64,000 bases of DNA from contig PRDH01000047.1 of assembly GCA_003345545.1 (NCBI GenBank), positions 1-64,000 of the forward strand. Reading direction: 5' to 3'. The notes under the pieces are model-generated. The model ran no database searches. It saw only the letters and a program-made list of their open reading frames with translations, and was not told the DNA's origin. Made by a program: the position numbers and the translations under genes. Shown here in pieces: positions 10,501 through 42,950 of the stretch (position 1 is the first letter of the stretch; each line of letters begins with the position of its first letter). Origin of the DNA: Candidatus Thorarchaeota archaeon. GTDB taxonomy: Archaea; Asgardarchaeota; Thorarchaeia; Thorarchaeales; Thorarchaeaceae.

Positions 10501-10625
10501 CAGTGATTCGTGCTATTCTTCTCAAACGTACCTCTAAAGACAGTGCATATTGACTCGACTTCTTTGAGGCATCGGTCAAGGACATAGTGGCCACTAGTCC
10601 TTGCCCAAGAATGTCATACTTGTGA
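10501..10625 (-). pseudogene. Decayed copy of the 3' end of the nucleotidyltransferase-like gene at 12065-12982
   Basis: Translates WARTSGHYVLDRCLKEVES versus intact WATTSGYYVLHQCLREAES; DNA aligns to about 12021-12152. Confidence 0.85.
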
Positions 10626-10698
10626 CTGTGATATTCTGGAGGGATTGATGCATTGGAGTGCCAAATGTTCTCTCAAATGTAAATGCAGAGAATAGAAG

Positions 10699-11964
10699 TT
10701 GCAGACCGTTATCGAGAGAGACCGGGATGTGAGTAGAGCTGAATCCAAAAGTAGAAGCTTTTTCTGCTTCTATGATATTGTTCTAAAGCAGAGTCACCCG
10801 AAATGTGACAGGAGTGGAGCTCCTATCCTCCAAGATTACGTAGCAGCGTCTGTCGGCATAATAGGGCTCACATTCACCATATTAGTATGCTGTGTACTAC
10901 TTCGTGAAGTGGCTCCAAAAAAGCAGAAAGAAGACTCACTAGAAGTCGAATGGGGTGATAGGCATTCACTGCCTCCGTATCTGCAGAAAGAGATTGAGAG
11001 GACTGCAAGCCCAACAGGTGGCTTAATGGATCTCCCGGCATGGCGGCCCGTTGATCAGTGGAGGACGCGCTCAACAGAAACCCTCACGCCCGAGAAACGA
11101 CCAATACCTGGTGTTGCTCGTTCGCTAGCGGCCTATGGTTCATATTCACGGGATGAACAGCAGTCTGTGAAGGCGGTACGTGGAGGGGAATTCGTTGGCA
11201 ACCGGATGCGATTCAAGGTCAAGGTGTTGAATGAATCCAAGTACACAATAACGGATGTGAGAGTCTTTCTCATCTCATACCCATCAGAATCGCTAAGACT
11301 AGTTGATGAGGATGACCACGCATATTACTCAAAGATCGAACCGAGCGGTTTTCGAAGTCCCTCGTTCGATTTTTTGCCCACCCACGACTGTGTTAAAGGA
11401 GAAATCAGTGCAGGAGTGTCGTACGTTGACATGAAGGGGCAGCCTCACACATTGACCACCAAACCGTTCGTCATTCGCTCAGTCTGCGACCTACTCATAC
11501 CAGATCAGATAGATCCGAAGGAGTTCGCACTCAGGCTCAAGCAACTCGAGTGCGGTGAGATTGTCGTAAAGGTCACTGATTGGACACCTGAAGAGATGTA
11601 TGAGAAGGCATTGCATATCGTTGAAGATGCGAACTTCTTTGAGGTGATCAGCAATATTGAAACGAAAGATGGCATCATTCATGCGAGAATCAGCGGACTT
11701 GCTAAAGGGAAATTCACAGGCAAGAGCGTTGCAGCGGAGTTGCATATCAAAGGGCCCTCGGGCAAGAAGGGAGCCAGCTGTAAGGTAAAGGTCTCAGGTG
11801 AAGACCAAGCAATGATCTTGCCTGCAATAGATGATCTACGGGAGCGCCTGAACGCTTGGTTATGTCCCATGTGTTCAAGTCCGTTGACGCTCGAGAACGT
11901 GGAACAACTCAAGGATGGGAAAACGGTAGTCTGTCAGTTCTGCAGGGTCTCAATTGGACGCTAG
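10699..11964 (+). CDS. Membrane-anchored protein with beta-COP/adaptin appendage-like (Ig-sandwich + platform) domains and C-terminal Zn ribbon; start uncertain
   Basis: TM helix VAASVGIIGLTFTILVCCVLL; pattern FKVKVLNES.TITDV..F..LRLVD..IEP..G.I...VSY..DLLIP..IDPKEF; CPMC/CQFC at the end. Confidence 0.65.
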   Translation: MQTVIERDRDVSRAESKSRSFFCFYDIVLKQSHPKCDRSGAPILQDYVAASVGIIGLTFTILVCCVLLREVAPKKQKEDSLEVEWGDRHSLPPYLQKEIERTASPTGGLMDLPAWRPVDQWRTRSTETLTPEKRPIPGVARSLAAYGSYSRDEQQSVKAVRGGEFVGNRMRFKVKVLNESKYTITDVRVFLISYPSESLRLVDEDDHAYYSKIEPSGFRSPSFDFLPTHDCVKGEISAGVSYVDMKGQPHTLTTKPFVIRSVCDLLIPDQIDPKEFALRLKQLECGEIVVKVTDWTPEEMYEKALHIVEDANFFEVISNIETKDGIIHARISGLAKGKFTGKSVAAELHIKGPSGKKGASCKVKVSGEDQAMILPAIDDLRERLNAWLCPMCSSPLTLENVEQLKDGKTVVCQFCRVSIGR

Positions 11965-12064
11965 AAGTATTGGCAAGCTCATAGAATAGCAGAAACTACA
12001 TATGAGTGCTGGAGTTGATCCAGTGATTTGTCTTTTCGTGCCCGAGAACGGCATCCCCGAATAC

Positions 12065-12982
12065 CTAGTGCATAGACTCAGCTTCTCTGAGGCATTGGTG
12101 AAGGACATAGTAGCCGCTAGTTGTAGCCCATCTAAAGTCGTCAGAACTTGTGAAGCCTGAGAGAAATAGGTTCCACCCAGCCATGTAGAAGTCTTGGTAG
12201 CGGCGGGCAATCTCATTGTAGCCTTGCGCACATAGCTCCTGTGCAATATGAGTCCGATTCCAAGACCAGACATCTAGTGGGTCGTCTGCAGTTTGTGTGA
12301 GCAGTCGAACCGGACCAGGGGATACTCTCCAAGTCATTTCACGGATGATTGCCCAGAAATCCAATCCAGACCTGTCCGCCACCCTAGATGGTATCTTGGC
12401 CACAAATTCTGAAAGAGAGAGAAGATTCTCTAGATCGATACTTCGTATCCTATCAGTCGATGGGAATACAGGTTCAGAGAGCCGACCAATCAGGACTCTT
12501 ACATCACGCTTGCGAGGTGGAACATATTCCAGATCCTCAATCAACTTGTCGACCAAACTAAGCTGGCTTCGAGGGATGTGAAGATGGTCAGGTTTCAGCT
12601 CTGTGAATCTGTCTTCGTAATGTTTGGACAGGCACATGGAATCTTGAAAAGGATCCTCCGAGTACGGGAACAGATCTGCTTCACCATCGAGCTTGATGTG
12701 GATATCGACGTCACTAATTGTTGGCACGTAGTCAATAGGGGATTCCCATGGTTTCACCGCGGAACCCTTCGCATACGCGCACTTCACGTGGTCACCTAGT
12801 GTTTCGACCAATACGGATACCCAAGAATCGAGACATACCTTGATGTCATCCCTTGCCTTCTCTGCTAACGTATCCCAGTCAAACACGGATACCAAAACTC
12901 CCAGATTGAAGAAAACCGTTCCGGTCGCTTTTTGTGGATTTTGGTCATGCACCACAAGAACAATTAGGGGGCTATCTGCCAA
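12065..12982 (-). CDS. Pol-beta superfamily nucleotidyltransferase-like protein (true start probably downstream of the listed TTG)
   Basis: YAKGSA...SDVDIHI matches hG[GS]...DxD. Confidence 0.65.
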   Translation of the reverse strand: MADSPLIVLVVHDQNPQKATGTVFFNLGVLVSVFDWDTLAEKARDDIKVCLDSWVSVLVETLGDHVKCAYAKGSAVKPWESPIDYVPTISDVDIHIKLDGEADLFPYSEDPFQDSMCLSKHYEDRFTELKPDHLHIPRSQLSLVDKLIEDLEYVPPRKRDVRVLIGRLSEPVFPSTDRIRSIDLENLLSLSEFVAKIPSRVADRSGLDFWAIIREMTWRVSPGPVRLLTQTADDPLDVWSWNRTHIAQELCAQGYNEIARRYQDFYMAGWNLFLSGFTSSDDFRWATTSGYYVLHQCLREAESMH

Positions 12983-13037
12983 TTGAGAGAACTTCCAGCA
13001 TAGTCCGCTGACTATAGACCGTGTGATGATGCGCTAG

Positions 13038-14486
13038 ATGACACCGACTGCTATCTTCCGTGAACCAGCTACTGCAAAGACACCCGGTCCGTACAGAGTA
13101 GTAGGTGCAACAAGCTTCGGGGTCTTCCTCGGCGCGCTAGACGCTTCCATTGTCAATGTATCGCTTGTGACCATGATGGATAGCTTCGGAACAACAATTG
13201 ACGCAATTCAGTGGGTCGTCGTCGCGTATCTCTTGGCCTTAACATCCACGATGCCTCTCATGGGCAAATTTGGAGACCGCTATGGAAAGAAGAGAATCTT
13301 CCAAATGGGCATGCTCGTGTTTACATTGGGATCGTTTGGTTGTGCCATATCTATCGGACTAGCGATGCTTGTCATAGCTCGCATTTTTCAGGCACTTGGC
13401 GCAGCAATGATTACCGCAAACGGACTGGCACTAGTAACATATTTCACCACACCTCAAAATAGAGGCAGAGCAATTGGACTCAACTCAGTTGTTCTCGCTG
13501 CAGCCCTCGGTAGCGGACCAGTTCTTGGCGGAATTCTAACACAGCTGTTTGGCTGGCCAAGCATATTCTTGGTGAATGTTCCAGTAGGAATCATGGGGCT
13601 CTTCATAGTTCAAGTAGCAGTTCCTCGGACCGAGAAGGTCCAAGAAACTCGCTTTGATGTGATTGGCGCAGGGCTATTCTTCAGTTTCCTGTTCTTGGTC
13701 ATCTACTACGTCACGGTAGCCACTACATCACAGGTAGCCACTCGCTTCGTCCTTATCGCTGGAGCACTCATCACCTTTGTCGGATTCATAATCAGAGAAA
13801 AGACCTTTGAGTCACCAGTAATCTCGATAGATGTCCTCACAGACAAGAGAATCTCAGTCAGCATCTTCTCTGCTCTCCTAGCTTACATGTCGATGGTCCC
13901 TGTTTCATTCTTGCTTCCGTTCTATCTTCAAGAGGCATTGGGTTTCAGCCAAATAATCACTGGCGTCTTTCTTGTCATCCAGCCCATTATGATCTCAGTC
14001 ACAGGGCCGTTTGCTGGTCTTGTATCAGAGAGGGTCAATGCTCAGGTCCAGACAACTGTCGGGCTCATTGTTCAGTTGAGCGGGCTTGTGATTCTCGCGC
14101 TGACGATTCCGAATGTTTTTGGGATGGGCGTCGGAGTGGCAATCATGGGGACAGGCCTCTCATTCTTCAGTGTGGCAAATGGAAACTTCATCATGACGTC
14201 AGCACCAAAGAAGTACATGGGTGTCGTTAGCGCACTCACAAACTTGGCAAGAACGACGGGCTTTTCGATTGCCACTGCACTAGTCACAACCGTCTTCGGA
14301 GTCTTTTTCCTGACCTACAACCCATGGGGATTCGAGTCAGGTCCACTCTTTGTGGCAGGCTACAGTCGAGCCCTCCAATCCAGTATCTGGATCTTCTCTG
14401 CGCTGACATTGATTGCAGCAGTCATCTCAACGATTAGGGGATTGAACAAGGCCGAAGAGGAGCGGGTCGAAACAAGAGCCGTCTAG
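13038..14486 (+). CDS. MFS transporter, DHA2 (EmrB/QacA) type
   Basis: LDASIVNVSL, GKFGDRYGKKR, GPVLGG..GWPSIFLVNVPVG; about 14 TM helices. Confidence 0.92.
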   Translation: MTPTAIFREPATAKTPGPYRVVGATSFGVFLGALDASIVNVSLVTMMDSFGTTIDAIQWVVVAYLLALTSTMPLMGKFGDRYGKKRIFQMGMLVFTLGSFGCAISIGLAMLVIARIFQALGAAMITANGLALVTYFTTPQNRGRAIGLNSVVLAAALGSGPVLGGILTQLFGWPSIFLVNVPVGIMGLFIVQVAVPRTEKVQETRFDVIGAGLFFSFLFLVIYYVTVATTSQVATRFVLIAGALITFVGFIIREKTFESPVISIDVLTDKRISVSIFSALLAYMSMVPVSFLLPFYLQEALGFSQIITGVFLVIQPIMISVTGPFAGLVSERVNAQVQTTVGLIVQLSGLVILALTIPNVFGMGVGVAIMGTGLSFFSVANGNFIMTSAPKKYMGVVSALTNLARTTGFSIATALVTTVFGVFFLTYNPWGFESGPLFVAGYSRALQSSIWIFSALTLIAAVISTIRGLNKAEEERVETRAV

Positions 14487-14497
14487 ATCGTACTCCT

Positions 14498-15841
14498 TCA
14501 GAGCCCAAACTCATCTGCAATGAACAGGACTCTTCTGCGAAAGTCGGGATGGTCTGAGTTCAGCATATTGACGCCAACCTCACTGTCAAATAGCATTTTC
14601 TTCGGCTGAGCCCGCAGCAACTTCAGTAGTTCTGCCAACTCCTCTGAAGAGAGGCGTCGGTCTTGGTCGTAATCGACCTTCCTCCAGTCAACAACATTCA
14701 TGTCCCTTGTTGTTTTTGATACAGGTTTGGTGTCATTTCGAATCTTGAGGAGGGGCTGAATAGTGGGCTCCACAGCATCTTTGACCTGCTCATCACTCAG
14801 CTGAACACCATACACCTCTCTCAAATGCCTGAGCTTGGTCGATAGGAAAACCCATGGCGAAATCTCGCGAGCATTTCGCTCGTCGATACCATCCAGAGGG
14901 TACTGACTAATCATCCTCATGAGCTCAGCATTGGATATCGGGCCAACTCTCTCAGGATTGAGAGACTCAAGCCAGCGAATTTCATCAACAAGAACAGTTA
15001 TAGCTTCAACGCGTTGTCCTAGTCGTATCAGAGAGTTGATGGTAGCCTCATGACCAAGCACTGTGGCGGCATGATGGTCAGACATAAGCTCTGCAGCTCT
15101 TGATGCTCTCTGCATGAAGTAGTTCGAGAGCAGGGTAAGTATTCTAGAGAGAATGAAGAATGCTAGTAGTACGACTGCCCTGACTGCCGTGGAAAACAGG
15201 TCACCATCAACTAGGAGAGAATCCGCGATAGCCAAGACAAGCCGGACATAGATATACAGGTAGATGAGGTCAATGAAAATGGAAGGCATTCGCACAAAGA
15301 TCGTGACAATCGAGTCCCGATTCTTTATGTGACCGAGCTCATGAGCTATTACAGCTTGCATCTCTTCTTCATTCAAAATCTCCAGAGTATTGCTGTGAAC
15401 AACCACAGTGGAGCCCAGAAGAGGAAGACTGAATGTGTAAGCATTTGGAATAGGCGACGCCATTAGATAGACCTTATCGACTGAAACCTCGCTCTTCTTC
15501 GCCAAATCGAGCGTCCACTTGACTATGCTATCGCGGCTGTACTTGCGCCTCCAGGGAACCTCCTTGTTGAATCGTGGATAGAGCTCTATCAAATTGGAGC
15601 TTCGCATCATCTGAGCAACAGAGGAATACAGTAGTACAAGCTGCATTAGTGCAATGCTGAAGAACAATGCTGCCGAAGCAAGGGGGTTTGTTCGGGCGAA
15701 GTTAATGCCTACGACGAAGAGTGTATCATCATCAAGGTAAAGCAAAGATACAATGAGTATTTGTATGAAGTCCATAATCAGGAAAGCATAGATAGCATTC
15801 CACTTATCACGCGAGACTTCTTCAATCATGGACAACACCAA
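14498..15841 (-). CDS. M48 (HtpX-like) membrane zinc metalloprotease with C-terminal EF-hand-like motif
   Basis: PNAY, AVIAHELGH, SRAAELMSD, C-terminal DHPDFRRR; loop DYDQDRRLSSEE. Confidence 0.85.
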   Translation of the reverse strand: MVLSMIEEVSRDKWNAIYAFLIMDFIQILIVSLLYLDDDTLFVVGINFARTNPLASAALFFSIALMQLVLLYSSVAQMMRSSNLIELYPRFNKEVPWRRKYSRDSIVKWTLDLAKKSEVSVDKVYLMASPIPNAYTFSLPLLGSTVVVHSNTLEILNEEEMQAVIAHELGHIKNRDSIVTIFVRMPSIFIDLIYLYIYVRLVLAIADSLLVDGDLFSTAVRAVVLLAFFILSRILTLLSNYFMQRASRAAELMSDHHAATVLGHEATINSLIRLGQRVEAITVLVDEIRWLESLNPERVGPISNAELMRMISQYPLDGIDERNAREISPWVFLSTKLRHLREVYGVQLSDEQVKDAVEPTIQPLLKIRNDTKPVSKTTRDMNVVDWRKVDYDQDRRLSSEELAELLKLLRAQPKKMLFDSEVGVNMLNSDHPDFRRRVLFIADEFGL

Positions 15842-15938
15842 AATTCATCAGCATCGCACTGACAACTCTCGGAACCAGATTATTTGAATTCTGCGGTGGG
15901 TCCCATAGTCTTTATCATCAGGCGTAACTAGTGGAAGT

Positions 15939-17381
15939 TTGGCGTCTACAATGAGAGATGGGATGGATTTAGCGGAATACTGTATCGAGTTCGGACAAGG
16001 CCTCGGATGCAGCTATGTTGAAGCCAGATATGTCAGAGATCTGGCACGAGGGATGGCATTCAGGAACGGAGAACCAGTGTCAGGAGGTTACTCCCCCTCC
16101 TCTGGTATTGGAGTGCGCGTCCTTGTGAACGGAAACATGGGCTTTGCATCATTTGACAGATTCGAGAAGAGCCTAGCAGAGGAGTCTATCACAACTGCCT
16201 TCAGAATCGCAAAGAATGCCAAGAGGAAGATACCTATTGATCTTGGAAAGCCGATCTCCAACAAAGCAAAATGGAAGATGAAGGCAAAAGAACCACTCAC
16301 TGATGTTGATTCGGATACAATGATGCAGTTCACTACTGATACGAACAAACAGATGGAGGGGCTTGCAGCCTACGTATTCATGTTCAACCCCAAGGTGATT
16401 GACAAGTATTTTGTTACAAATGAAGGCGCTCAGATCGAGAGCCAATTATCCTACATCCTCATGTCCTCGACCCTAACCGCTCAGGCGCCAGGAGGTTCAG
16501 AGCAGAAATATCTTGACCTGACACTTGCCGGAGGATGGGAACGAATCCGAGAGTCTGATTGTCTTGAGCATCTCAAGGACGAGGTTGCGCGGTTGAGGAG
16601 GGCGGCTGAAACAGCTGTTAGGGTTGATGAGCTATTGAGCCAGCCGATTGACATGATTGTTGGGCCTCAGGTATCAGGCATCATGGCACATGAGAATGTC
16701 GGTCATCCAAGCGAGGGGGATCGTATCATGGGCAGAGAGGGAGCGCAGGCAGGAGAGAGCTTCTGGAGGGACCTCAAAATTGGGGAATCGCGCGTGGGGT
16801 CTAGTGCGGTGAATGTCTGCGAGAATCCGACAATCGAGAAGACATCCGGCTACTACCTCTATGATGATGAGGGAGTGAAGTCGCGAAAGCGGCAACTCAT
16901 CAAAAAGGGAATAATCAATGAACCACTCTTGAATAGAGAATTTGGTACGAGATTCGGAAGAGGCTCAAACGCAGCGGCACGTGCTTCAGCGTACAATAGA
17001 GAGCCAATAATCCGGATGGCGAACACCTATTTCGAACCAGGCGATTACTCCTTCGAAGAGCTCGTTGAGGACGTCAAGTTGGGAGTCTATATGAGAAGTT
17101 TCCAAGAGTGGAATATCGACGACAGACGATACCAAGCCAAGTATACAGGCTCCGAAGCCTATCTTATCAGAAATGGTGAGATAACGAACACGATGGTCAA
17201 GAGGCCTATCATGGAAACAACGAGCGTTGGAATGTTGAGTGCAGTTGATGCAGTCTCAAAGAATCTAGTCTTTGATTTCCCAGGAACATGCGGAAAGAGC
17301 GACCCCATGCAAGGAATTCCTGTCTATGCGGGAGGCGGAGAGATTAGATTCAGAGGCATCAGACTTGGAGGTGTTGGCTGA
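15939..17381 (+). CDS. tldD: TldD metalloprotease
   Basis: GIGVRV, HENVGHPSEGD, YDDEGV, RMANTY, GTCGKSDPMQ. Confidence 0.93.
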   Translation: MASTMRDGMDLAEYCIEFGQGLGCSYVEARYVRDLARGMAFRNGEPVSGGYSPSSGIGVRVLVNGNMGFASFDRFEKSLAEESITTAFRIAKNAKRKIPIDLGKPISNKAKWKMKAKEPLTDVDSDTMMQFTTDTNKQMEGLAAYVFMFNPKVIDKYFVTNEGAQIESQLSYILMSSTLTAQAPGGSEQKYLDLTLAGGWERIRESDCLEHLKDEVARLRRAAETAVRVDELLSQPIDMIVGPQVSGIMAHENVGHPSEGDRIMGREGAQAGESFWRDLKIGESRVGSSAVNVCENPTIEKTSGYYLYDDEGVKSRKRQLIKKGIINEPLLNREFGTRFGRGSNAAARASAYNREPIIRMANTYFEPGDYSFEELVEDVKLGVYMRSFQEWNIDDRRYQAKYTGSEAYLIRNGEITNTMVKRPIMETTSVGMLSAVDAVSKNLVFDFPGTCGKSDPMQGIPVYAGGGEIRFRGIRLGGVG

Positions 17382-18760
17382 TGAAGAACACCGACCAACT
17401 GAAGACATTCGTTGACGAAGCTGTCGACTATGGTGCACGAAAGACTGACGCAATCATAGCACGCGTCACTAGGAAGAAGGACTCACAGATCCGATTCTCG
17501 CAGAGTGATATAGACATCAGCAATCGATGGAACAGCTTGCAGCTGGAGCTTTTCGTTTTGGTGAAGGGTAAGAAGACAGGTTCCACAGAGCGCCCCGTGG
17601 CTTCGATTGACGATGTCAGAAAGACTGTCGATGATGCAGTCACCTTCACAGGAATTCTGCCCGATTCAATGTTCTTTGCAGGACTAGAAGATAAGATAGG
17701 GTCTTATCCTAGATTGAAGGAGCAGTATGACAGTCGAATCGACGAATTTGTTGAAGAAGCCCCAGAAATCGTCAACTCTGTTGTGGACCAGGCCCTACAA
17801 GAGGGCGCGAAAAGAGTGGCAGGTGCCCTCATGGTCACAGACCAGACATTCCTCTTTCGGTCGAGTCATGGACCAGAAGGCTCAGGCAAAAGGACTACTT
17901 TCGACCTCAATGTCAGAGCGCTCCAGGATGAGCTGGACTACTCCGGACAGGGACTGGAGTGCGGAACCATGCCCACGAAATCGAAGAAGAAGATGCTCGC
18001 TGCAGGTGCTAAAGCGGGAAGACTATCGAAGCAGGCCATTGGAGCGGCGCAAGGCACTCCAGGCAAATACGACCTCGTACTGTCGCCAACTGTGGCAGCC
18101 AGTGTAATCGGCCTAATTCCAGCTCAAGCGAATCCGTTTCTGATCATGACGGGTATGTCACCACTGAAAGACCGCATGGGTGAGCAGATTGCACCCGAGT
18201 TCGTTACTGCCTATGAGGACCCCTTGTTCGAGGGAGGTCTTGGAAGTACTCCATTCGACTGGGAAGGCACTCCGAGCAAGACACTGGCTATCACCGATAG
18301 AGGAGTACTCAAGGCATTGGTTCACAACACAACAACAGCGAAACTCTTTGAGTCTGAGAGCACTGGGAGCTCAAGAATGGTAGTTCTAGGAATGGGAATG
18401 AAGATGCTTCTTCCGGGGCCGTCAAACGTCGTATTCGAGAACGGAGACCATAACCTAGAAGAGATTCTTGATGTCAGTAGACCAACAATCTATGTGACAT
18501 GCAACTGGTACTCACGATTCCAGAACCATCAGACAGGCGACTTCTCAACTATTCCGAGAGATGCCATGTTCCTCGTCAAGAGGGGCGAGATGAAGCCCAT
18601 CAAGAACATGCGTATTAGTGACAACACAATGAGGATGTTGGCAAATATCGATGCTCTCGGTAGCGACCGTACACAGGTCTTCTGGTGGGAGGTTCAGACG
18701 CCAACGGTCATACCTACAATGAGGATTCGTGACTGCAAAATGACAGCAGCAACACAATAG
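17381..18760 (+). CDS. pmbA: PmbA/TldE partner subunit
   Basis: Translationally coupled to tldD; PGKYDLVLSP, PFDWEGTP, GDFSTIPRD; lacks HExxH. Confidence 0.9.
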   Translation: MKNTDQLKTFVDEAVDYGARKTDAIIARVTRKKDSQIRFSQSDIDISNRWNSLQLELFVLVKGKKTGSTERPVASIDDVRKTVDDAVTFTGILPDSMFFAGLEDKIGSYPRLKEQYDSRIDEFVEEAPEIVNSVVDQALQEGAKRVAGALMVTDQTFLFRSSHGPEGSGKRTTFDLNVRALQDELDYSGQGLECGTMPTKSKKKMLAAGAKAGRLSKQAIGAAQGTPGKYDLVLSPTVAASVIGLIPAQANPFLIMTGMSPLKDRMGEQIAPEFVTAYEDPLFEGGLGSTPFDWEGTPSKTLAITDRGVLKALVHNTTTAKLFESESTGSSRMVVLGMGMKMLLPGPSNVVFENGDHNLEEILDVSRPTIYVTCNWYSRFQNHQTGDFSTIPRDAMFLVKRGEMKPIKNMRISDNTMRMLANIDALGSDRTQVFWWEVQTPTVIPTMRIRDCKMTAATQ

Positions 18761-18779
18761 ATCGCAATCAGATGTTGTG

Positions 18780-18800
18780 GCGGAGCCTCCGTGGCTCCGC
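18780..18800 (+). terminator. GC-rich hairpin after pmbA
   Basis: GCGGAGCC-TCCGT-GGCTCCGC, perfect 8-bp stem. Confidence 0.5.
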
Positions 18801-19043
18801 TCCTGTATTCAAGAGCAGTTTCGAAGCAGTTTGCCCTGTTCGATGTGTTTCGCATGATTTGATAGAATCTCCGAACATCGAGTCTGAGAGACACAAGCAG
18901 CAAGAAATCCTACAGTTTCTTCAGCTTACTTTTGATAATGGGATATAGAAACAGCTTCTGGCACTTCACTGGTTGTCGATTAAGATTTATTAGCCAGTTC
19001 GCCCTCATGTGACATGATTCGCATATGGTATCGGTGATGACTA

Positions 19044-19445
19044 ATGACAAGAATAATAGATATTGAAGGAATAGGTACATCAAATGCTCAGAAACTCAAA
19101 GCAGCCGGTATAGAGAGTACCGAGAAGCTATTGGATGTAGGCGGTTCTCCTCATGGTAGGGACGAACTGAGTAAGAAGATAGGCATAACGAGTAGCCAGA
19201 TTTTGGAATGGGTCAATCGAGCCGATTTGTACAGGATCAAAGGGGTTGGCAAGCAGTATTCTGATCTTCTTGAACAGGCAGGAGTCGATACTGTAGTTGA
19301 ACTCGCGCAAAGAGTTCCAGAGAACTTACACGCAAAGATGTTAGAAGTGAATAAGGCTAAGAAATTCGTTCAAAGACCGCCCTCCCTCAATGCCGTGAAG
19401 AAATGGGTAGGCCAGGCCAAGGCTCTACCTCGAAAAATCCAATGA
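19044..19445 (+). CDS. DUF4332 domain (tandem HhH) protein
   Basis: IDIEGIG, ADLYRIKGVGKQYSDLLEQAGVDTVVELAQR. Confidence 0.9.
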   Translation: MTRIIDIEGIGTSNAQKLKAAGIESTEKLLDVGGSPHGRDELSKKIGITSSQILEWVNRADLYRIKGVGKQYSDLLEQAGVDTVVELAQRVPENLHAKMLEVNKAKKFVQRPPSLNAVKKWVGQAKALPRKIQ

Positions 19446-19803
19446 AGCTCCTTGAGTGTAAGAGCACGATAGTTCAATAATGGCAGGTTTGGGCCTGGAA
19501 TGAAAACGTTTCTCCCAGGTCCAGCTCATATTGCCTTGAAGAGCTTATACTATTGCATCAAGAAACTGCTAGATGTAATCAGACCAACCATATGTACGAT
19601 ATGCAACTGGTATTTGCCTTTCTAAAGGAGGTCAGGTTCCTCTTCAAGAAGATGCACCTCAGTGATAATACGATGAAGACGCTTCCGAGCTAGATGCATT
19701 TACGGATGACTTTGGACAGGTGTTTCGGTAGGAAGCAAGGGCGATTATTGTCTTGCTAATAATAAGAATGGGAATCTGCAGAATGACTGCAGCAACGCAG
19801 TGA
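19442..19803 (+). pseudogene. Decayed copy of the 3' ~140 codons of pmbA/tldE
   Basis: Reads KLLECKST..GMKTFLPGP..LLDVIRPTICTICNWY..SDNTMK..QVF..CRMTAATQ* versus intact KLFESEST..GMKMLLPGP..ILDVSRPTIYVTCNWY..SDNTMR..QVF..CKMTAATQ* (18338-18760), with frameshifts, a stop and deletions. Confidence 0.92.
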
Positions 19804-19850
19804 GCAGTCATCATTCACTACTATATGACTTGATGAATGTGGGTACTGTC

Positions 19851-20448
19851 TCACCATGGTTCTGAACTGCCCAGCCAACCGAATAGGAAAGCTGAAGCAA
19901 CTTGGATTCCAATCAGGAGGTTCACCAAGAGAATAGTCGCCCCAAGAGAGGTGTTGTGAGGTTTACAAAAGCCTACCACATAGAGATACCCCACCCAGAG
20001 ACCAGATATGAGCCCAAAATACGGAATCCATCCGAACAGCAGAACTGGTGAAGCCGAGAAAACGCCAATCTTCAAAGAGTCGAGAACAGTCCCAGTTCCG
20101 CGCAATCCCTTCGCAAAGATATGGAATAGCAGACCCAGAAGGGGCAACTTCAGTACATTGCCAAAATACGTCAGGATGCCAACCCAAAAGTAGCGACTAA
20201 TCCCTGTAGATGCTTCAAGGAGAGGAGCCTGTAGGTATGCTCCCATTTGTGCATTCGTACCTGCATGAACTATATCACAAGGAATGTGGAACCAGTTTAC
20301 AATGGGAGTTAGCAATGCCAAGATTACACTCAGACTAGGAAGAAACGCAGCACGGGCCAGAATCCTTGGATCTCTCGTTCCCTTCGAACACTACATCAGG
20401 GTGCAACACCAGACTGAGAGCCTTCCGAAAATCCCCAGTAAGTTACAT
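19851..20448 (-). pseudogene. Yip1-family membrane protein, disrupted at the 5' end
   Basis: C-terminal SASPVLLFGWIPY..LW...VGF...H is typical of archaeal YIP1. GAGGTG + ATG (20448) is followed by TAA; the N-terminal FRKALSLVLHPDVVFE and GFWPVLRFFLV lie in two other frames. Confidence 0.75.
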
Positions 20449-20463
20449 GCTGGCACCTCAAGT

Positions 20464-21012: not shown

Positions 21013-21126
21013 CTATTGACTAATCCCTAAGAGAAAATGTGAGTACATCACTTATCAGTATTACTAATATCCTGCAGAAACACCAATCGAAGAGTTTTAG
21101 AAGACTCGCCGGCTCACCTTGGAAGT

Positions 21127-23204: not shown

Positions 23205-23599
23205 TTCTATCGGTAATTCAGGCAAGGGTTTCGTTTTGAAGCTCCTTGTCATCGTTTCCTTTTTCTGAGAAGTGGTTGTCTAGTCTAGCTCGTTTTCTCA
23301 CATCATTTGGAGGAGCCTTTCTCCACCACATTTCTACATCCTTTTGCGAACGAGTGTGAGCCTCCCAATGTGCAGAAACACGACCAGATGTGCTGTAGTA
23401 TCTGACGTAACACAAATGCCGTCCTGTGTTGATTCCCAGATTACTGCACAATCTCTGTTCATCGAGTTGGAGTGCGTTCTTATGGGATCTAGCAATGGTA
23501 TCTAGTTTCGAGGCGAGGTGTGCTACTGACGAGTCCTTCGATTTCTTGCTGAGAACTGCAATGTTATTATAATGTAAGAAAGTACTTGCAGCGACTCAT

Positions 23600-31717: not shown

Positions 31718-31887
31718 TTGCCTTTCGAGTCAACAAAGGCTCGGTTTATTGATTTGCCATGGTCCATGTGTCAGGGCTCGCACAAAGGACACCATAAGGC
31801 TCCTGCTTATATAGGTGAGAGGAACTACAAGGAGCTACTTCTTGAATTTGCGATTCATTCGCTTTGCAAGGAGGAGGACTATTACCG

Positions 31888-33531: not shown

Positions 33532-33550
33532 GCGCATACGAATCCAGGAA

Positions 33551-33587
33551 GAGCAGGCTTCTCCGCCTGCTCCCTTGTTTTTTTTTT
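33551..33587 (+). terminator. Hairpin plus poly-T terminator/attenuator between dppA and dppB
   Basis: GAGCAGGC-TTCTCC-GCCTGCTC followed by a T10 tract. Confidence 0.8.
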
Positions 33588-33715
33588 CTCCCCGTGGTTT
33601 AGTTCAATTGAAGTCTGTCTTTTTGTGATATTCGAATTCTTTCGTCATTCGAAGAGCTTAAGTCTTTGAATAAAGCAGATTTCTGTGCTCTGTGCCTAGC
33701 ATTTGGGTGATTGAG

Positions 33716-34726: not shown

Positions 34727-34737
34727 GTGAATGCTAG

Positions 34738-36036: not shown

Positions 36037-36042
36037 TCAACT

Positions 36043-37065
36043 GTGTTAGAGAGTGAGAATAACCTTCTTGAGATCAGAGATTTGTCAGTGGAATACAAAA
36101 CGCGAAGGGGTGTAGCTAAAGGCGTCGATGCAATATCGTTGAATGTTCCAGAGAATAAGACTCTCGGTGTTGCCGGAGAGAGCGGTTGTGGCAAAAGCAC
36201 CCTTGGCAGGGCAATCATGCGGCTTGTGGCTTATCCAGGGCGAATCATCAGTGGCGACATCATATTCAACATAGAGGAGGATATCGTGACAAGTAATGCC
36301 ACCATCAAAAGAGGACAGGTTAACCTTCTGAAGTTGAACGAGAAAGAGATGAGGGCTATCCGTGGAAAGGAGATTTCGTACATTTTCCAAGATCCCATGA
36401 CTTCCTTGAATCCGATGGCCACTGTTGGCACGCATTTCATCGAGATTATGAAAGCCCATGACCCTACAATCGAGGATGAGAAGGCCATTGATAGAGCGAA
36501 AAAGATACTCATCGGCTTAGGTATCAATCCTGAAAGAGTGACCGACTATCCCCATCAATTCAGTGGGGGAATGAGACAGCGAGTCATGATCGGTCTTGCT
36601 CTTGCCCTAAAACCCAAGCTACTAATCGCTGATGAGCCTACGACCTCTCTCGATGTAATAGTCGAAGCGCAAATACTTGAGGAAATTGCTGCTCTCAAGG
36701 ACAAGTTCAATCTCACGATGATTCTCATAACGCACAATCTGGGGGTCCTTGCCCAGACAGCCGATAATATCGCCATCATGTACACAAGCAGAGTGGTGGA
36801 ATTGTCGCCAACACTGGACTTATTCGAGAAACCCCTCCATCCATATGCGCAAGCCCTGCTTCAATCCGTTCCCGACGTCACGCATCCCGAGAAGCAACTT
36901 GCCTGGATTCCTGGTGCTCCTCCAGACCTAGTCAATCCACTCCCAGGATGTATGTATCATCCAAGATGCCCCCATGCGATGGATATCTGCACACAGATTG
37001 TACCGCCACTGGTCGAAGTAGAGCCTGGAAGACTCGTGGCATGCCATCTCTACCTGGAGGGATAA
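36043..37065 (+). CDS. dppD: Peptide ABC ATPase DppD
   Basis: GESGCGKS, FSGGMRQR, ADEPT, HPY and C-terminal 4-Cys domain. Confidence 0.95.
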   Translation: MLESENNLLEIRDLSVEYKTRRGVAKGVDAISLNVPENKTLGVAGESGCGKSTLGRAIMRLVAYPGRIISGDIIFNIEEDIVTSNATIKRGQVNLLKLNEKEMRAIRGKEISYIFQDPMTSLNPMATVGTHFIEIMKAHDPTIEDEKAIDRAKKILIGLGINPERVTDYPHQFSGGMRQRVMIGLALALKPKLLIADEPTTSLDVIVEAQILEEIAALKDKFNLTMILITHNLGVLAQTADNIAIMYTSRVVELSPTLDLFEKPLHPYAQALLQSVPDVTHPEKQLAWIPGAPPDLVNPLPGCMYHPRCPHAMDICTQIVPPLVEVEPGRLVACHLYLEG

Positions 37066-37068
37066 TGT

Positions 37069-38046
37069 ATGGCACTCATTGAGTTTAGAAAAGTAAAGAA
37101 GTTCTTCCCTGTACAGATGGGCTTCATTAGCTCTCTGATATCAAAGAATCAAGAGTATGTTAGAGCTGTAGATGGAATCTCATTCGAAATCAGGAAGGGA
37201 GAGGTTTTGGGGCTCGCTGGAGAGAGCGGCTCCGGAAAGACAACTACTGGCAGACTGGCGGTAAGGCTTCTGCAACCCACAGAGGGTGAGATCATCTATG
37301 ATGGACAGGATATTGCCTTTCTCAAGGGACAACAACTACGCCTGCTCAGAAGGCGTCTGCAGTTCACATTCCAGGATCCCACTTCGTCGCTCAACCCAAG
37401 GATGAAGGTAGGAGACGCTATTGCTGATGCTTTGAGACTTCAGGGCATTGGAACGAAGACAGAGAGAAAGGAGAGAGCTGAGGAAACGCTGGATAAAGTA
37501 GGTCTCTCTCCACCTAGCTCATTCTATGAACGACTTCCTCATCAGCTGAGCGGCGGCCAAAAACAACGCGTGGTCTTTGGCAGGGCAATCATCCTCAAAC
37601 CTGAATTCATCGTGACAGACGAGCCAGTAGCAATGGTGGATGTTTCAATTAAGGCACAGATTCTGAACCTGATGACAGAATTGAAGAAAGAACTCAACTT
37701 GACCTACCTATTCATCAGTCACGACCTAGCGACAGCCAGGCATGTCTGCGATAGGATTGCAATCATGTATCTTGGGCAAATCATCGAGGTTGCGGACAGG
37801 GACAGCATCTATGAAGATCCTCTTCATCCCTATTCAGTTGGTCTAATGAGCGCGATACCAGTGCCGAATCCGAGAGCTCAGAAGAACGAGGCAGTCCCGC
37901 GTGGAGAGATACCCAGTCCCATCAACCCGCCAAGTGGATGTAGATTTCATCCTAGATGCCCAAGGGCTTTTGAGAAGTGTCCGCTTGAAGTGCCAGAACT
38001 GAAAGAAGTGTCCGATGGCCGAATGGTCGCATGTCATCTCTACTGA
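37069..38046 (+). CDS. dppF: Peptide ABC ATPase DppF
   Basis: [32 protein letters not shown]. Confidence 0.95.
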   Translation: MALIEFRKVKKFFPVQMGFISSLISKNQEYVRAVDGISFEIRKGEVLGLAGESGSGKTTTGRLAVRLLQPTEGEIIYDGQDIAFLKGQQLRLLRRRLQFTFQDPTSSLNPRMKVGDAIADALRLQGIGTKTERKERAEETLDKVGLSPPSSFYERLPHQLSGGQKQRVVFGRAIILKPEFIVTDEPVAMVDVSIKAQILNLMTELKKELNLTYLFISHDLATARHVCDRIAIMYLGQIIEVADRDSIYEDPLHPYSVGLMSAIPVPNPRAQKNEAVPRGEIPSPINPPSGCRFHPRCPRAFEKCPLEVPELKEVSDGRMVACHLY

Positions 38047-38168
38047 GTCATAGTCAGTGCAGATAATCAGTACGAGCCACCCCGGACTTGCTGCCCACTT
38101 CATTATTCTGCCCCTCGCACTGAAAGAATAAATGGACCTGTGTACACCAAACGGGCGGGATAAATGCA

Positions 38169-39743
38169 GTGACAGAACTAGAAACAAGGATATCCAAGGT
38201 ATCTATCTTTCGAGATGGCGCGAGAGTCACGCGTGTAGGCAAGGCACACCTTGGAAAAGGTGCGCAGAGAGTCACGGTCGGCAAGATTACTGAGCTTGCA
38301 CAAAGGGATAGCTTTCGAGTAAAAGGCAGAGGACCCGCGAAGCTCTCCAGTATTGATGTGCAGCAAGTGTCGCAGGTCTATGAGCCATCCGAGGACGTGA
38401 AACCTCTGCATGAGGAACTGAAGCAGCTCCAAAAACAATATGATGAAACCAAGGATGAGATCGAGTTTCATAACGCGAAACTAGCGAATCTCAAGAGTAT
38501 GACCACGGAGTTTTCCAATCACTTTGGACTAGTATATGCTGCAAATGAGGGAGAAATAACACAGCTCACGGAGATGGACAAGAAATCCTCCAAGCTGATG
38601 CTCGACACTCAGAGGACAATGAGAGAACTGGAGGATAAGCTGCAAGAGATAACCAAGAAGATTGAAGTGGTGAGAGCGAACATAGGAAGAATCGGTTCTG
38701 TGCGAAGAACAGAGATGACAAACACTGTTGAGGTCGCTCTTGAGGTGTCTGAGGAAGCAGACATTGAACTGGACATCACTTATCAAACGCAGAATGCTCA
38801 TTGGCTACCAATCTACGATGTAGATCTTCGTCCAGGAGATTCCAAATTACGCAGAATGGCGCTTCTCTACAATCGGACCGGGGAGGACTGGAATAAGGTC
38901 GATATTGTAGTGTCGACAGCCACAGCAAGGCCAATTGAGGCCATCGAACCAACTCCATACTATGTTGGGGTATATGATCCGGCAGAAGAACGCGCGAGAA
39001 TCGACTCACGTAAAATGAAGAGGGCGCTCGCTATGCCATCAGCTGCACCAATGGCTGCAAAGGCGGTGGCTCCGCCAGCTCCGCCTCCAGAAATCGAAGA
39101 AGAATTCGCAGAGCCAACAGAGACCATCTCCGGGATTGCTACCTACGAACTCCCGAAGCCTGTCAGTATTCCCTCAGATAATGAGAAACATCCAGTGACG
39201 CTGTTTGAAGAGAGTCTAAGCTCTGAAACTGTACACTATTGGTACGCTGAGGGAATGGCCGAGGTGGTTGCACAAGACAAGGTTACAAACGCCGACAATG
39301 TGATCCTGCCAGGAACGGTCAGGGTCTATGCTGAGGGAGATTACATAGGAGAAACTACTCTTCCTCAGATATCGCCCAGAGAGTCGTTCAAGATTGGAAC
39401 CCGTATTGCACAGGATGTCAAGGCAGAGAAGAAACTCACTCATCGAGAAGTTGAGAAAGCTGGCGTGACGCACGGGAAACTGAAACGCTCGTACGGCTAT
39501 CGTCTTGAGATACAGAGCTTCTCAAAGCATGCAATAGAGATTGACATCTTTGACAGGATCCCCCACAGTCTCAATCCTGTCATTGAAGTCAAAGTCGACT
39601 GGGAGAAGACTGGAACAAAGAGTCAGAACCTGGGTGTTGCTGAGTGGCATAGGACAATCCAGCCGAATCAGAAAGCAATGGTCGAGTATGAGTACGATGT
39701 ATCTTGGGAGAAAGGAGTCACAATTCATCCGCCGCTACCATAG
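38169..39743 (+). CDS. DUF4140/DUF4139 (MuiA-like) protein, copy 1
   Basis: ISKVSIFRDGARVTR, coiled coil, W.P.YD, NRTGEDW, VSTA, DRIP. Confidence 0.9.
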   Translation: MTELETRISKVSIFRDGARVTRVGKAHLGKGAQRVTVGKITELAQRDSFRVKGRGPAKLSSIDVQQVSQVYEPSEDVKPLHEELKQLQKQYDETKDEIEFHNAKLANLKSMTTEFSNHFGLVYAANEGEITQLTEMDKKSSKLMLDTQRTMRELEDKLQEITKKIEVVRANIGRIGSVRRTEMTNTVEVALEVSEEADIELDITYQTQNAHWLPIYDVDLRPGDSKLRRMALLYNRTGEDWNKVDIVVSTATARPIEAIEPTPYYVGVYDPAEERARIDSRKMKRALAMPSAAPMAAKAVAPPAPPPEIEEEFAEPTETISGIATYELPKPVSIPSDNEKHPVTLFEESLSSETVHYWYAEGMAEVVAQDKVTNADNVILPGTVRVYAEGDYIGETTLPQISPRESFKIGTRIAQDVKAEKKLTHREVEKAGVTHGKLKRSYGYRLEIQSFSKHAIEIDIFDRIPHSLNPVIEVKVDWEKTGTKSQNLGVAEWHRTIQPNQKAMVEYEYDVSWEKGVTIHPPLP

Positions 39744-39754
39744 GAGGCTAATCA

Positions 39755-41332
39755 ATGAAGGATATGGAAACAAGAATCACGAGCGCAACAGTATTCCGCG
39801 ATGGCGCCAGAATAACAAGAATCGGTAAGACTGAACTGACCAGGGGAGAGCAAATCGTGCGAGTCGGGGGGATTACCGAGTATGCACTGCAAGACAGCTT
39901 CCGAGTAAGAGGTCATGGCAAAGCCATTCTCCGAGGCATTGACGTAAAGAAGACGACTCAGACCTATGAACCACAGAGTGACATCAAGGAAGACCTGATG
40001 AAACTGAAAAATCTTGAGAAAGAGAAGAGAGGCATTCAGGACCAGGTCGAACTTCAGAAAGCCAGAATCAGTCATCTTACGACGATGATGGCCCAATTCA
40101 GTTCCGAGTTCGGCAAGTGGTTCAGCGTGGGTGAAACGGGGATGGACCATCTGACCAAGATGGATAAAATGAATCAGGATCTGGTTTCAGACGCCAAAAA
40201 GAACCTCCGCACACTATCCACTGAACTCGAACGAATCGATGCTGAAATAGCTGCTCTTCGGAATAATATCCAACGGATTCAGGGCGAGAGACGGACTCAG
40301 ACATTCACTGAGGTTTATGTGACTCTTGATGTAAAGGAGAGCACGCCCCTTGAACTCGAGGTGATCTACCAACTATCAGTTGCGAGTTGGTACTCCACAT
40401 ATGACGTAGACATTGGACAGGGCGAGGCATCTCTGAAGCGCATCGCCATGGTATACAACAACACCATGGAGAACTGGGAAGACATCGATCTAATTGTATC
40501 AACAGCCTCTGCACGACCAGTCGAGGCAGTGAAACCCCAACCATACTACGTCGACGTATATCGACCAGCTCCACAGGGAGTTGCGTATGCTAGCGGAGGT
40601 CGCTATGCAGAGGCAGCACCAGCGATGGCGATGGACTCTGAGAAACTCATGGAAAAAGAGGAAGCAGAGCCCATGCCAGAGATGGTTGAAGAGTATGCTG
40701 AGGCGTCTGAGAGCCTGAGTGGAATCACAACATACGATGTGCCTGGCAAGGTCACAATTGAAGCCAATAGAGACCCGCAGCCGATCACACTGACATTGGA
40801 CAACTTTGAGTCAAAGAGGCTTCATTATTGGAATGCTTCAGCAATGACCGAGGTTGTTGCTCAAGATGAGATTACTAATGGAGACCTCGTGATACTCCCA
40901 GGAAATGTGAAAGTGTACGCAGATGGCGATTTCATAGGCGAAACAGGCATCAGTACCATTGCTCCTCGTGAGAAATTCAGATTGGGAACAAGAGCTGCCT
41001 ATGATATGAAGGCCGAGAAGAAACTCAAGGAGAAAGACACAGAGAAGGCCGGACTGACCCGGGGCAAACAGAAGAGGGGCTACAAGTATCTCCTCGAATT
41101 GAAGAACTTCTCGAAGAGTGAAATCGAGATACGTATTGTAGATCGAATTCCATATAGCACGTCAGAGAAGATCATCATTCAGATGAGCCAACCGACGTTG
41201 GCGTACAAGACCTTGGAACTTGGGATTGTTACCTGGGAAACCAAGCTCGAGAGCGGCAAGGAACTTAAGATTGAATACGGTTTTGAGGTCGAATGGGAGA
41301 AGGACCTCATTGTGAGACCCCCACTTCCGTGA
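39755..41332 (+). CDS. DUF4140/DUF4139 (MuiA-like) protein, copy 2
   Basis: Full-length paralogue of the preceding gene; both end PPLP. Confidence 0.9.
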   Translation: MKDMETRITSATVFRDGARITRIGKTELTRGEQIVRVGGITEYALQDSFRVRGHGKAILRGIDVKKTTQTYEPQSDIKEDLMKLKNLEKEKRGIQDQVELQKARISHLTTMMAQFSSEFGKWFSVGETGMDHLTKMDKMNQDLVSDAKKNLRTLSTELERIDAEIAALRNNIQRIQGERRTQTFTEVYVTLDVKESTPLELEVIYQLSVASWYSTYDVDIGQGEASLKRIAMVYNNTMENWEDIDLIVSTASARPVEAVKPQPYYVDVYRPAPQGVAYASGGRYAEAAPAMAMDSEKLMEKEEAEPMPEMVEEYAEASESLSGITTYDVPGKVTIEANRDPQPITLTLDNFESKRLHYWNASAMTEVVAQDEITNGDLVILPGNVKVYADGDFIGETGISTIAPREKFRLGTRAAYDMKAEKKLKEKDTEKAGLTRGKQKRGYKYLLELKNFSKSEIEIRIVDRIPYSTSEKIIIQMSQPTLAYKTLELGIVTWETKLESGKELKIEYGFEVEWEKDLIVRPPLP

Positions 41333-41360
41333 ATGCTCTGAGTAGGCCGAGCGCAATCTC

Positions 41361-42701
41361 TTACCAGCGGCTCATCTCATCAATGATAGCTACTATTCTA
41401 TGCTGCGCCCTGCGAAAGTTCTCTAGCGAAATGCTCTCATTAGGTGAGTGCGCGTTTCCGAGATGGTCACTACAACCCACAGATACCATTGGAACGTACC
41501 TGTTGAATAGATAGAGCGGGCCAGAACCAGGGCTTGTAGGATGGATGATGAGATCACCGAAGACTCGTCTGTTAGCAGCCTTAACGATCTTGACGAACGG
41601 ATGGCTTATGGGAGTCTTCGCCGGTGGATAGCCCTCGATATAGCCAATCTTGATATCGTTGAAACCATGGCTATCAAGATGCCTGCGGAGTTTCCTATGA
41701 ATTTCGTCTGGGTGCATGCCCTCTATTAGACGGAAATCGATCTTCACAGAGGCCTTCGCAGGAAGGACCGTCATCGATCCTCTTCCCTGGTACCCACTAG
41801 TGATTCCGCAGATGTTGCATGTTGGGGCTCCATAGTATGCCTTCTTGAGCTCCATACCACTGAGTCCATTCAGGTACTCATCTACAGCATATATCTCTTT
41901 GAAGTCAGCCTCGTGAAGATCAATCTTCTCAATAGCCTTAATCTCAGCCTTCGTCAATGGTTTCATACCATCATAGAATCCGTCGATCAATATCCTGCTA
42001 TTCCCGTCTCTGAGCGTACTGAGCGCCCATACAAGTCGATAGGCTGCAGATGGCAGAATGCAGGCAAGGCTCGAATGAACATTCTTGGATAGTCGCTCAA
42101 CTTCCAGCTCTACATAGTAGATGCCCTTGAGGCCTAACCATGCTTCCTGTATCCCATCAATATCTGCCCCACCAAACTCCCAAATCCCTCCATCTGCAGT
42201 GATGAAGTCCTTGTTCTTCTTGGTATACTCGGGAAGATGTGGACTGCCTATTTCCTCTTCACCTTCGATTACAAACTTGATGTTCACTGGAAGATCTGTA
42301 CCAGTTTCTTTGAATGCCTTGATGACCTGAATTCGCGATGTTGTGTCGCCCTTGTTATCAGCCACGCCTCGTCCCCATAGACGGCCTTCTCTTACCTCTG
42401 GCTCGAAAGGCGGCGAAGCCCATAAGTCCATTGGCTCGGCAGGTTGAACATCGTAGTGGTCATAGAACAAGAGCGTTCGCTTAGCGCCCACATCCAGCCA
42501 ACCTGTCACGACAGGAGCACCACTCGTTGGATGGATTTGGGTTTCCAGTCCCGCATCCCGAAGCATTCTCTCAACCAACTCCGAGGTCTCTGGTATCCCC
42601 TCGCCCTTGGCAGCGACTGTTGGTATCTCTACAAGTTTCTTCAGAGCATCAACAGAACTATGAAGGTCATCATCGATAGACCGGCTGACTTCTTCATACA
42701 T
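41361..42701 (-). CDS. M20 family metallopeptidase/dipeptidase (ArgE/DapE-like)
   Basis: YDHYDVQP, GRGVADNKG, EGEEEIGS, HSPNE. Confidence 0.93.
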   Translation of the reverse strand: MYEEVSRSIDDDLHSSVDALKKLVEIPTVAAKGEGIPETSELVERMLRDAGLETQIHPTSGAPVVTGWLDVGAKRTLLFYDHYDVQPAEPMDLWASPPFEPEVREGRLWGRGVADNKGDTTSRIQVIKAFKETGTDLPVNIKFVIEGEEEIGSPHLPEYTKKNKDFITADGGIWEFGGADIDGIQEAWLGLKGIYYVELEVERLSKNVHSSLACILPSAAYRLVWALSTLRDGNSRILIDGFYDGMKPLTKAEIKAIEKIDLHEADFKEIYAVDEYLNGLSGMELKKAYYGAPTCNICGITSGYQGRGSMTVLPAKASVKIDFRLIEGMHPDEIHRKLRRHLDSHGFNDIKIGYIEGYPPAKTPISHPFVKIVKAANRRVFGDLIIHPTSPGSGPLYLFNRYVPMVSVGCSDHLGNAHSPNESISLENFRRAQHRIVAIIDEMSRW

Positions 42702-42769
42702 ATATCACACCGGCCATCACTCAATCAACGCGGGTGATATATCCTCTCCTTTAGGCGAAGAGGAGAAGT

Positions 42770-42950
42770 GAAGGGCGAACAGCGAAGGAGAATGGTCTTG
42801 CTCGACAGAATCCCGACATCAAATGATTTTCCAGCTGGTCATGGTTTCAAGCCAAGATGCCAAGAAAGCGGAAACATGTGCAAAACAGATGAGTCCCAAC
42901 TGGCTGAGGTGTTCGATGGACATTAAGCAGCCTGCCGGACATGGAGATGA
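42770..42950 (+). pseudogene. Decayed 3' end of a DppF-type ATPase gene
   Basis: RRRMVLLDRIPTSNDFPAGHGFKPRCQESGNMCKTDESQLAEVFDGH*AAC versus Dpp[49 protein letters not shown]; in-frame TAA at 42924. Confidence 0.75.

Follow-up and report, generated by a model that had tools for sequence, protein, structure and literature searches.

Single-gene insertions bounded by duplicated gene ends in a Thorarchaeota genome

Asgard genomes are large and gene-rich and show much horizontal transfer and duplication, and how new genes enter such dense chromosomes is the question addressed here. The window under study, a stretch of 64,000 nt at positions 1-64000 of contig C47 (PRDH01000047.1) in a Candidatus Thorarchaeota assembly (GCA_003345545.1; G000 in the following), raises this question at three places, where intergenic DNA resembles the 3′ end of a gene. 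In a preliminary description, all three were read as eroded gene ends lying near an intact copy of the same gene, with extra genes between the two. Translated searches of the three intergenic stretches confirmed that the remnants are real: all of them score above chance, and each continues precisely to the C-terminus of its model protein. The architecture as a whole holds for two of the three, at a nucleotidyltransferase gene and at pmbA, and fails for the third, near dppF. In the two that hold, a host gene (the anchor) has received a single gene (the cargo) at its stop codon, and a second copy of the anchor's tail bounds the insertion on its far side.

The source assembly comprises 2.69 Mb in 82 contigs and is 93% complete; the names of its closest protein homologues place it in Thorarchaeota, within the Asgard group. 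It was compared with 27 other species of the same genus, the closest of which, G001, shares 86-92% DNA identity with it. Rfam and tRNA scans of the region yielded no RNA genes, and literature searches found no description of the pattern in Asgard archaea. The window contributes two new anchors, one clean empty site, one foreign cargo, and one cautionary false case.

Two insertions at anchor stop codons

The clearer of the two loci is that of pmbA. The anchor, an intact gene of the TldD/PmbA peptidase family (17381..18760, plus strand; Pfam PmbA_TldD), is native over its whole length, and its product is 88% identical between G000 and G001. It is followed by a 283-nt spacer (18761..19043, plus strand) that came with the cargo, by the cargo itself, which encodes a 133-aa helix-hairpin-helix protein (19044..19445, plus strand; Pfam DUF4332), and by a decayed copy of the pmbA tail (19445..19803, plus strand; about 355 nt, corresponding approximately to codons 320-459) that is recognizable by both translated and DNA similarity. 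In translated searches, residues 336-459 of the pmbA product match 19488-19800 on the plus strand across three frames (E 5e-15). Similarity to the pmbA DNA of G001 starts at 19445, where the DUF4332 stop codon ends. The copy, which has suffered two deletions as well as frameshifts, shares 60-65% identity with the corresponding tails in the genus and is closest to that of G001. Its last 27 nt match the end of the G001 gene at 26 of 27 positions, and these 27 nt together with the 50-nt spacer to the next gene are 93% identical to G001, a conservation that is attributed to constraint from the 3′ region of the convergent gene. The latter, a Yip1-family gene (19851..20321, minus strand) found in the G000/G001 clade only, has a short N-terminus in G000, where its product is 156 aa long and a stop lies upstream, versus 199 aa in G001 and other homologues, and may be truncated or broken.

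The locus before insertion is preserved in relatives. In eight members of the genus, tldD and pmbA are followed directly by a convergent Ras-family GTPase gene, and in G001 the Yip1 gene sits between pmbA and that GTPase gene. Compared with G001, the G000 locus holds 1020 extra bases (18757-19776), made up of the 283-nt spacer, the DUF4332 gene, and the decayed tail; the two matching segments of G001 overlap by 23 nt, which form the end of pmbA and also the end of the remnant. The G001 locus is a precise empty site. The synteny anticipated in the preliminary description, with the cargo absent and the anchor adjacent to the gene after the scar, is therefore found at pmbA, both in G001 and, with the next conserved gene as neighbour, in the eight further species.

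As to the source of the cargo, neither the DUF4332 gene nor its 283-nt spacer has a DNA match in the 27 other genomes, and protein searches of four of these recovered a single DUF4332 relative, a 237-aa paralogue with 30% identity. The nearest homologues, 74-75% identical, belong to other Thorarchaeota and occur there in a different context, so the cargo is foreign to the genus. In those genomes DUF4332 is flanked by an abhydrolase gene and TBP and not by pmbA, and no abhydrolase relic is present in the G000 spacer. In a metagenome scan for DUF4332, only relatives of at most 63% identity were found. On one 3.2-kb contig from ENA, a truncated DUF4332 gene (90% identical) is followed after 490 bp by Yip1 and the Ras GTPase gene, the same order as in G000; its Yip1 is 92% identical to that of G000, the same distance as the Yip1 of G001.

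The age of the event can be estimated from the decay of the spare tail. Third-position identity of pmbA between G000 and G001 is 63% in the 5′ part of the gene and 68% in the tail, and comparison of this range with the 60-65% identity of the remnant makes the remnant about as old as the G000/G001 split. In trees, the decayed tail falls within the G000/G001 clade, next to G001 (bootstrap 73; 67 when the last 27 nt are removed); it lies on a very long branch, and support of 67-73% cannot tell which of the two copies is the native one. No second copy of the pmbA tail lies behind Yip1, where local alignment performed no better than with shuffled sequence.

At the other locus, the anchor encodes a 305-aa protein (12065..12982, minus strand) that has no Pfam match and is probably a Pol-beta-type nucleotidyltransferase, given that its feature and structure neighbours in the Atlas include NTP_transf_2 clusters. 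Its last 21 codons and stop codon (12067-12130, minus strand) recur in a spare tail copy of 66 nt (10542..10607, minus strand). The two form a direct repeat with 82% identity (E 2e-14) and a 2-nt indel near the end of the spare copy, and by translated search residues 285-304 match 10548-10607 on the minus strand with 13 of 20 residues identical. The spare tail adjoins a convergent gene for aldehyde:ferredoxin oxidoreductase (AFOR; 8209..10395, plus strand; Pfam AFOR_N and AFOR_C). Between the two tails lies the cargo (10699..11964, plus strand), which is transcribed convergently with the anchor and encodes a 421-aa protein, likewise with no Pfam match; its structure neighbours in the Atlas, HEAT_2 and adaptin clusters, point to an alpha-solenoid of the HEAT/adaptin-like type. 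The family is multi-copy in Thorarchaeota and forms tandem arrays in relatives. Within G000, a paralogue at C3:12912-14051 shares 61% protein identity with the cargo, and 81% DNA identity over the last 865 nt. This paralogue occupies an apparently ancestral position and is interrupted near codon 323 by an in-frame stop. Towards its 5′ end it resembles the cargo of the window far less than over its last 865 nt, and such uneven similarity suggests recombination between the two paralogues.

With regard to synteny, the nucleotidyltransferase locus does not repeat the result obtained at pmbA. Positions 10403-12184 of the window are missing from G001, where the anchor (on contig C14) has lost residues 273-305, i.e., its last 33 codons, and continues for 15 junk codons antisense to the end of AFOR, the two genes being fused tail to tail. 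Since the G001 anchor has been truncated by a deletion, G001 is a deletion derivative at this locus and not an empty site. Among farther relatives the 3′ flank of the anchor is variable. In G006 it holds sulfation genes and a solenoid paralogue; in G010 the anchor is followed by 2.2 kb of other genes and then by a spare tail (residues 244-304); and G007 keeps just the tail of the anchor (residues 251-304), beside an MFS transporter gene.

The lack of an integrase, which the preliminary description had noted, extends to the whole assembly. Neither PF00589 (tyrosine recombinase, Phage_integrase) nor PF00239 (serine recombinase, Resolvase) has a match in the 2.69-Mb, 93%-complete assembly, and controls were positive in 14 and 12 of 14 genomes. 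Even a XerA-type chromosome resolvase is absent from the G000 assembly. No nuclease, integrase, or recombinase domain was found in any cargo gene checked. The repeats of different anchors share no motif beyond chance 8-9-mers, and their lengths range from 34 nt for decayed copies up to about 355 nt. Cargo orientation is mixed, convergent with the anchor at the nucleotidyltransferase gene and co-directional at pmbA, and at both loci the repeat similarity ends at the stop codon. The anchors are mostly highly conserved sequences. Taken together, conserved anchors, variable repeat length, mixed orientation, and the lack of a common motif fit homology better than a fixed att site.

Recurrence in the genome and its relatives

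If the two loci represent a general phenomenon, similar scars should occur elsewhere. The products of all open reading frames (ORFs) of at least 100 aa were compared with uncovered DNA, contig ends excluded, which gave 22 C-terminal, 14 N-terminal, and 28 internal fragments, many of them from distant loci. Five of the 14 N-terminal fragments are copies of the 16S trailer read as ORFs, and many of the internal ones are real small genes. In addition, the tails, heads, and middles of genes were compared at the DNA level with their own 10-kb flanks. This test gave about six loci with a tail repeated downstream and three to five with a head repeated upstream; wrong-side controls gave fewer. The 3′ bias is only about 2:1.

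Several of these loci are instructive. Behind etfA, spare tails of 34-124 nt are found in G000, G001, and G007, each with a different cargo, and the spare copy carries an attached terminator hairpin. The last ~50 nt of the G000 actin gene (C12:76926-78065; Pfam E 4.5e-133) recur about 1.1 kb downstream as a spare copy, and the DNA between holds small ORFs (DUF1801 and a 90-aa ORF). Extra actin tails number one in G000, two in G007, where the copies have identical boundaries, and one in G035; in G001, contigs break exactly at the actin tail. Downstream of the sole 16S gene of G000, a ~110-nt piece of the 16S trailer recurs in at least ten copies, all on the same strand and 77-95% identical, at spacings of 0.4-1.6 kb (C81:68432-80330).

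Two further loci can be compared with an uninterrupted state. At gene A of contig C59 (C59:4276-7274), a 170-nt repeat that consists of the gene tail and the whole spacer to the next start codon surrounds an insert of 1338 bp, whose 273-codon ORF runs on the opposite strand, and G001 provides a clean empty site. Immediately before the spare tail lies a diverged 5′ piece of the downstream gene. The other locus, an AlkZ-like DNA glycosylase gene (C21:44419-46735), is a mirror-image case at a 5′ end: the 5′ end of the gene, with its upstream region, is repeated as a 122-nt copy on the far side of a 934-bp insert, which is absent from G001 and G007, both of which are empty sites. At the two loci, the needed half of each repeat copy is 88-98% identical to G001, and the redundant halves are only ~73% identical. 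Empty sites in relatives are thus available for three loci only, pmbA, C59, and the AlkZ-like gene, and at all three the homologous segment is duplicated around the insert and present in one copy in the empty site. A scar candidate on C56 was set aside; it is 91% conserved in G001, holds an intact 67-codon ORF, and is probably a real small gene. Another candidate, on C35, is uninformative, its anchor, cargo, and repeat all being replaced in G001.

Recombinase-free insertions bounded by repeated gene ends are therefore recurrent and are not restricted to 3′ ends. The preliminary description had suggested a genome-wide count of scars with a test for 3′ bias; the recurrence it expected is seen at etfA, actin, C59, and the 16S trailer, and its view that only 3′ ends survive goes too far, given the AlkZ-like gene and the genome-wide counts, which include N-terminal and internal fragments and many from distant loci.

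Origin of the insertions

How a single gene comes to lie between two copies of its neighbour's tail may be explained by homology alone. For the nucleotidyltransferase and pmbA loci, we give an even chance to homology-guided insertion at gene ends that needs no recombinase. Briefly, DNA that carries a gene together with a stretch resembling the tail of the anchor would pair with the end of the anchor, and a single crossover, or a one-ended homologous event, would integrate this DNA and leave the tail duplicated. The ordinary homologous-recombination machinery of the cell would act here in place of a dedicated recombinase. Selection would then keep one copy intact and let the redundant one decay, except for those parts of the spare copy that the neighbour still needs, such as a shared terminator region, which would stay conserved. 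We infer that homology drives the entry and also that the process could be reversed, in that recombination between the two tail copies might later remove the cassette cleanly.

A broader form of this explanation can be put forward tentatively, and we consider it possible but on balance doubtful. Accessory genes of Thorarchaeota would come and go as cassettes with no recombinase involved: any gene lying between two copies of the end of a conserved gene could loop out as a circle with one copy and later enter its own or a related genome again, by ordinary homologous recombination with that gene end. The natural landing pads would be the ends of genes such as actin, etfA, rRNA, and pmbA, and such a system would be integron-like in function, with neither integrase nor attC.

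Several observations weigh against homology-guided insertion. Intact pmbA has no phylogenetic breakpoint, G001 being the closest relative in every 180-nt window, and there is therefore no sign of repair by a foreign tail; the idea that an incoming tail repairs the target gene and displaces the native one is, like strict 3′ specificity, not supported by the data here. No young event was found in which one half of the repeat is demonstrably donor-derived. The three-way patterns at C59 and the AlkZ-like gene fit plain native duplication and decay equally well: single-crossover integration of near-identical DNA predicts half-conserved copies at these loci, and target duplication followed by decay predicts the same. 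For a circle to carry a genus-foreign DUF4332 gene along with a native-type pmbA tail, the two would have had to be joined beforehand. The insertions at the nucleotidyltransferase gene and at pmbA are single old events and may not share a mechanism with the arrays. Moreover, conservation of the nucleotidyltransferase within the genus is poor (protein identity of 49% to both G006 and G010), which weakens the argument from conserved anchors, and a recombinase could be hidden in the unassembled part of the 93%-complete genome.

The main rival, duplicative illegitimate insertion filtered by selection, is serious, albeit in our estimation unlikely. Here, foreign or relocated DNA would enter at staggered breaks, by replication template switching, or by unequal joining of sister copies, and its entry would duplicate the target over tens to hundreds of bases. 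In a genome that is 89% coding, only insertions that spare one complete gene and its signals would survive, so the scars would be 3′ ends downstream or 5′ ends upstream of an intact gene. This would account for the native look of both copies at C59 and the AlkZ-like gene, each of which keeps only its needed half, for pmbA being intact and without a breakpoint, for the 5′ mirror case with its empty sites in G001 and G007, for the excess of terminal fragments over wrong-side controls, and for the wide variation in repeat length. It accounts less well, however, for recurrent hits on one anchor in several species and for arrays of three to more than ten tail copies (actin, etfA, and the 16S trailer), and it leaves unexplained why anchors are mostly conserved and why the junction lies at the stop codon at both the nucleotidyltransferase gene and pmbA. 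Tandem duplication spanning a gene tail, followed by random loss through deletions and insertions, was the alternative named in the preliminary description and is the least probable of the explanations considered. At C59, the diverged 5′ piece of the downstream gene before the spare tail looks like a duplication joint. At the nucleotidyltransferase and pmbA loci, however, the junction spacers hold no relic of AFOR or Yip1 and no second copy of the cargo, and this lack of any piece of a neighbouring gene disfavours the alternative there. In addition, the G001 empty site is exact, and the foreign DUF4332 gene requires at least one insertion in any case.

It is also conceivable, if improbable, that the repeats are attL and attR of decayed or trans-mobilised site-specific elements of the integrase type, or scars of homing endonucleases, the enzyme gene having been lost, encoded elsewhere, or left unassembled. 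The architecture resembles that of integrase elements with a replacement 3′ end and of WHO elements (PMC7282813), and the shared boundaries of the G007 actin tails would also fit. Against this stand the absence of tyrosine and serine recombinases from the assembly, cargo genes with neither nuclease nor recombinase domains, and repeats of 34 to ~355 nt with no common motif; at least six anchors would need as many specificities.

The yeast WHO element is the nearest architecture that has been described. WHO homing elements integrate at FBA1, and the 3′ end of the gene is replaced at each integration (Coughlan et al. 2020, PMC7282813). As in Thorarchaeota, the gene itself remains intact, and behind it lie inserted genes and copies of its 3′ end that have been displaced and are decaying; repeated events build arrays behind one anchor. 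However, WHO encodes a homing endonuclease and swaps the gene end for a cutting-resistant allele, whereas the Thorarchaeota cargo lacks a nuclease domain and intact pmbA has no replaced segment. In prokaryotes, integrase elements that enter the 3′ ends of protein-coding or tRNA genes, such as e14 and phage 21 in icd of E. coli and integrated elements of archaea, carry a replacement end. They likewise leave the gene intact, its old end displaced, and the insert flanked by direct repeats of the target end, but they carry or depend on an integrase and use a fixed att core. G000, by comparison, has no tyrosine or serine recombinase, its cargo is a single gene, and its repeats vary in length (66 and ~355 nt).

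Homology-guided insertion has parallels in Campbell-type single-crossover integration (pop-in/pop-out) and homology-facilitated illegitimate recombination, both known from bacterial and archaeal genetics. These also place a homologous stretch on both sides of the insert, allow its exact removal by recombination, and need no dedicated recombinase. To our knowledge, such events are mainly laboratory or transformation phenomena, and we know of no case in which they recurrently build natural rows of cassettes behind conserved genes. Small accessory units between repeats at a fixed anchor are likewise found in integrons, integrase-less attC arrays, tRNA-anchored additive islands, and tycheposon arrays. 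In integrons, however, attC hairpins are unrelated to the neighbouring gene, cassettes have one orientation, and IntI is required, whereas the Thorarchaeota repeats are the anchor's own end, orientation is mixed, and there is no integrase. Polymorphic toxins (Rhs and CdiA) are known for orphan C-terminal modules, where a new 3′ end with a partner gene similarly pushes the old 3′ end downstream. There, the anchors are toxins whose tips vary and which come with immunity genes; those of Thorarchaeota, by contrast, are housekeeping genes with unchanging tails.

If homology-guided insertion is correct, homology at conserved gene ends would suffice to dock single-gene cassettes with no mobile-element enzyme, and the archaea most closely related to eukaryotes would have a route of gene gain both simple and general.

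A relic of a deleted operon near dppF

The third remnant (42780..42944, plus strand) has a different origin. It had been taken for a decayed tail of dppF (37069-38046), with two DUF4139 genes and an M20 peptidase gene as cargo. The remnant is 33% identical to residues 271-325 of the dppF product, with an in-frame stop, versus 52% identical to the tail of F2, an ATPase gene of G001. Upstream of GAPDH, G001 carries a complete second opp/dpp operon (permease, ATPase D2, and ATPase F2), and the order in G001, G002, and G003 is M20 peptidase, operon 2 (D2, F2), a 55-codon gene, and GAPDH. Homology between G000 and G001 resumes at position 42950 of the window, just past the end of the remnant at 42944. 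In G010, which also lacks operon 2, a faint relic of the F2 tail lies in the same place. Because F2 is intact at the same position in relatives and is the more similar of the two genes, the remnant is debris of an operon that was deleted in G000.

The supposed cargo is not cargo either. The two DUF4139 genes (plus strand) and the M20 peptidase gene (minus strand), which together span 38169..42701, lie between dppF and GAPDH across the genus, in the same order in at least nine of its genomes, and have been its neighbours since ancestral times. What looks like a spare gene end close to a paralogue can thus be a plain deletion relic, and such remnants should be polarised against relatives before they are counted as insertion scars.

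Two further observations concern the window. An intergenic stretch at 23281-23502 (minus strand) resembles residues 793-865 of an 897-aa C69 protein (38% identity, E 6e-8) and may be another relic of a lost gene. The 55-codon gene between the M20 peptidase gene and GAPDH (43013..43180, minus strand), which is convergent with the third remnant, is a listed ORF with a CxxC...C motif; it is unannotated, and its product is conserved in eight relatives at 68-95% identity, better than those of its neighbours.

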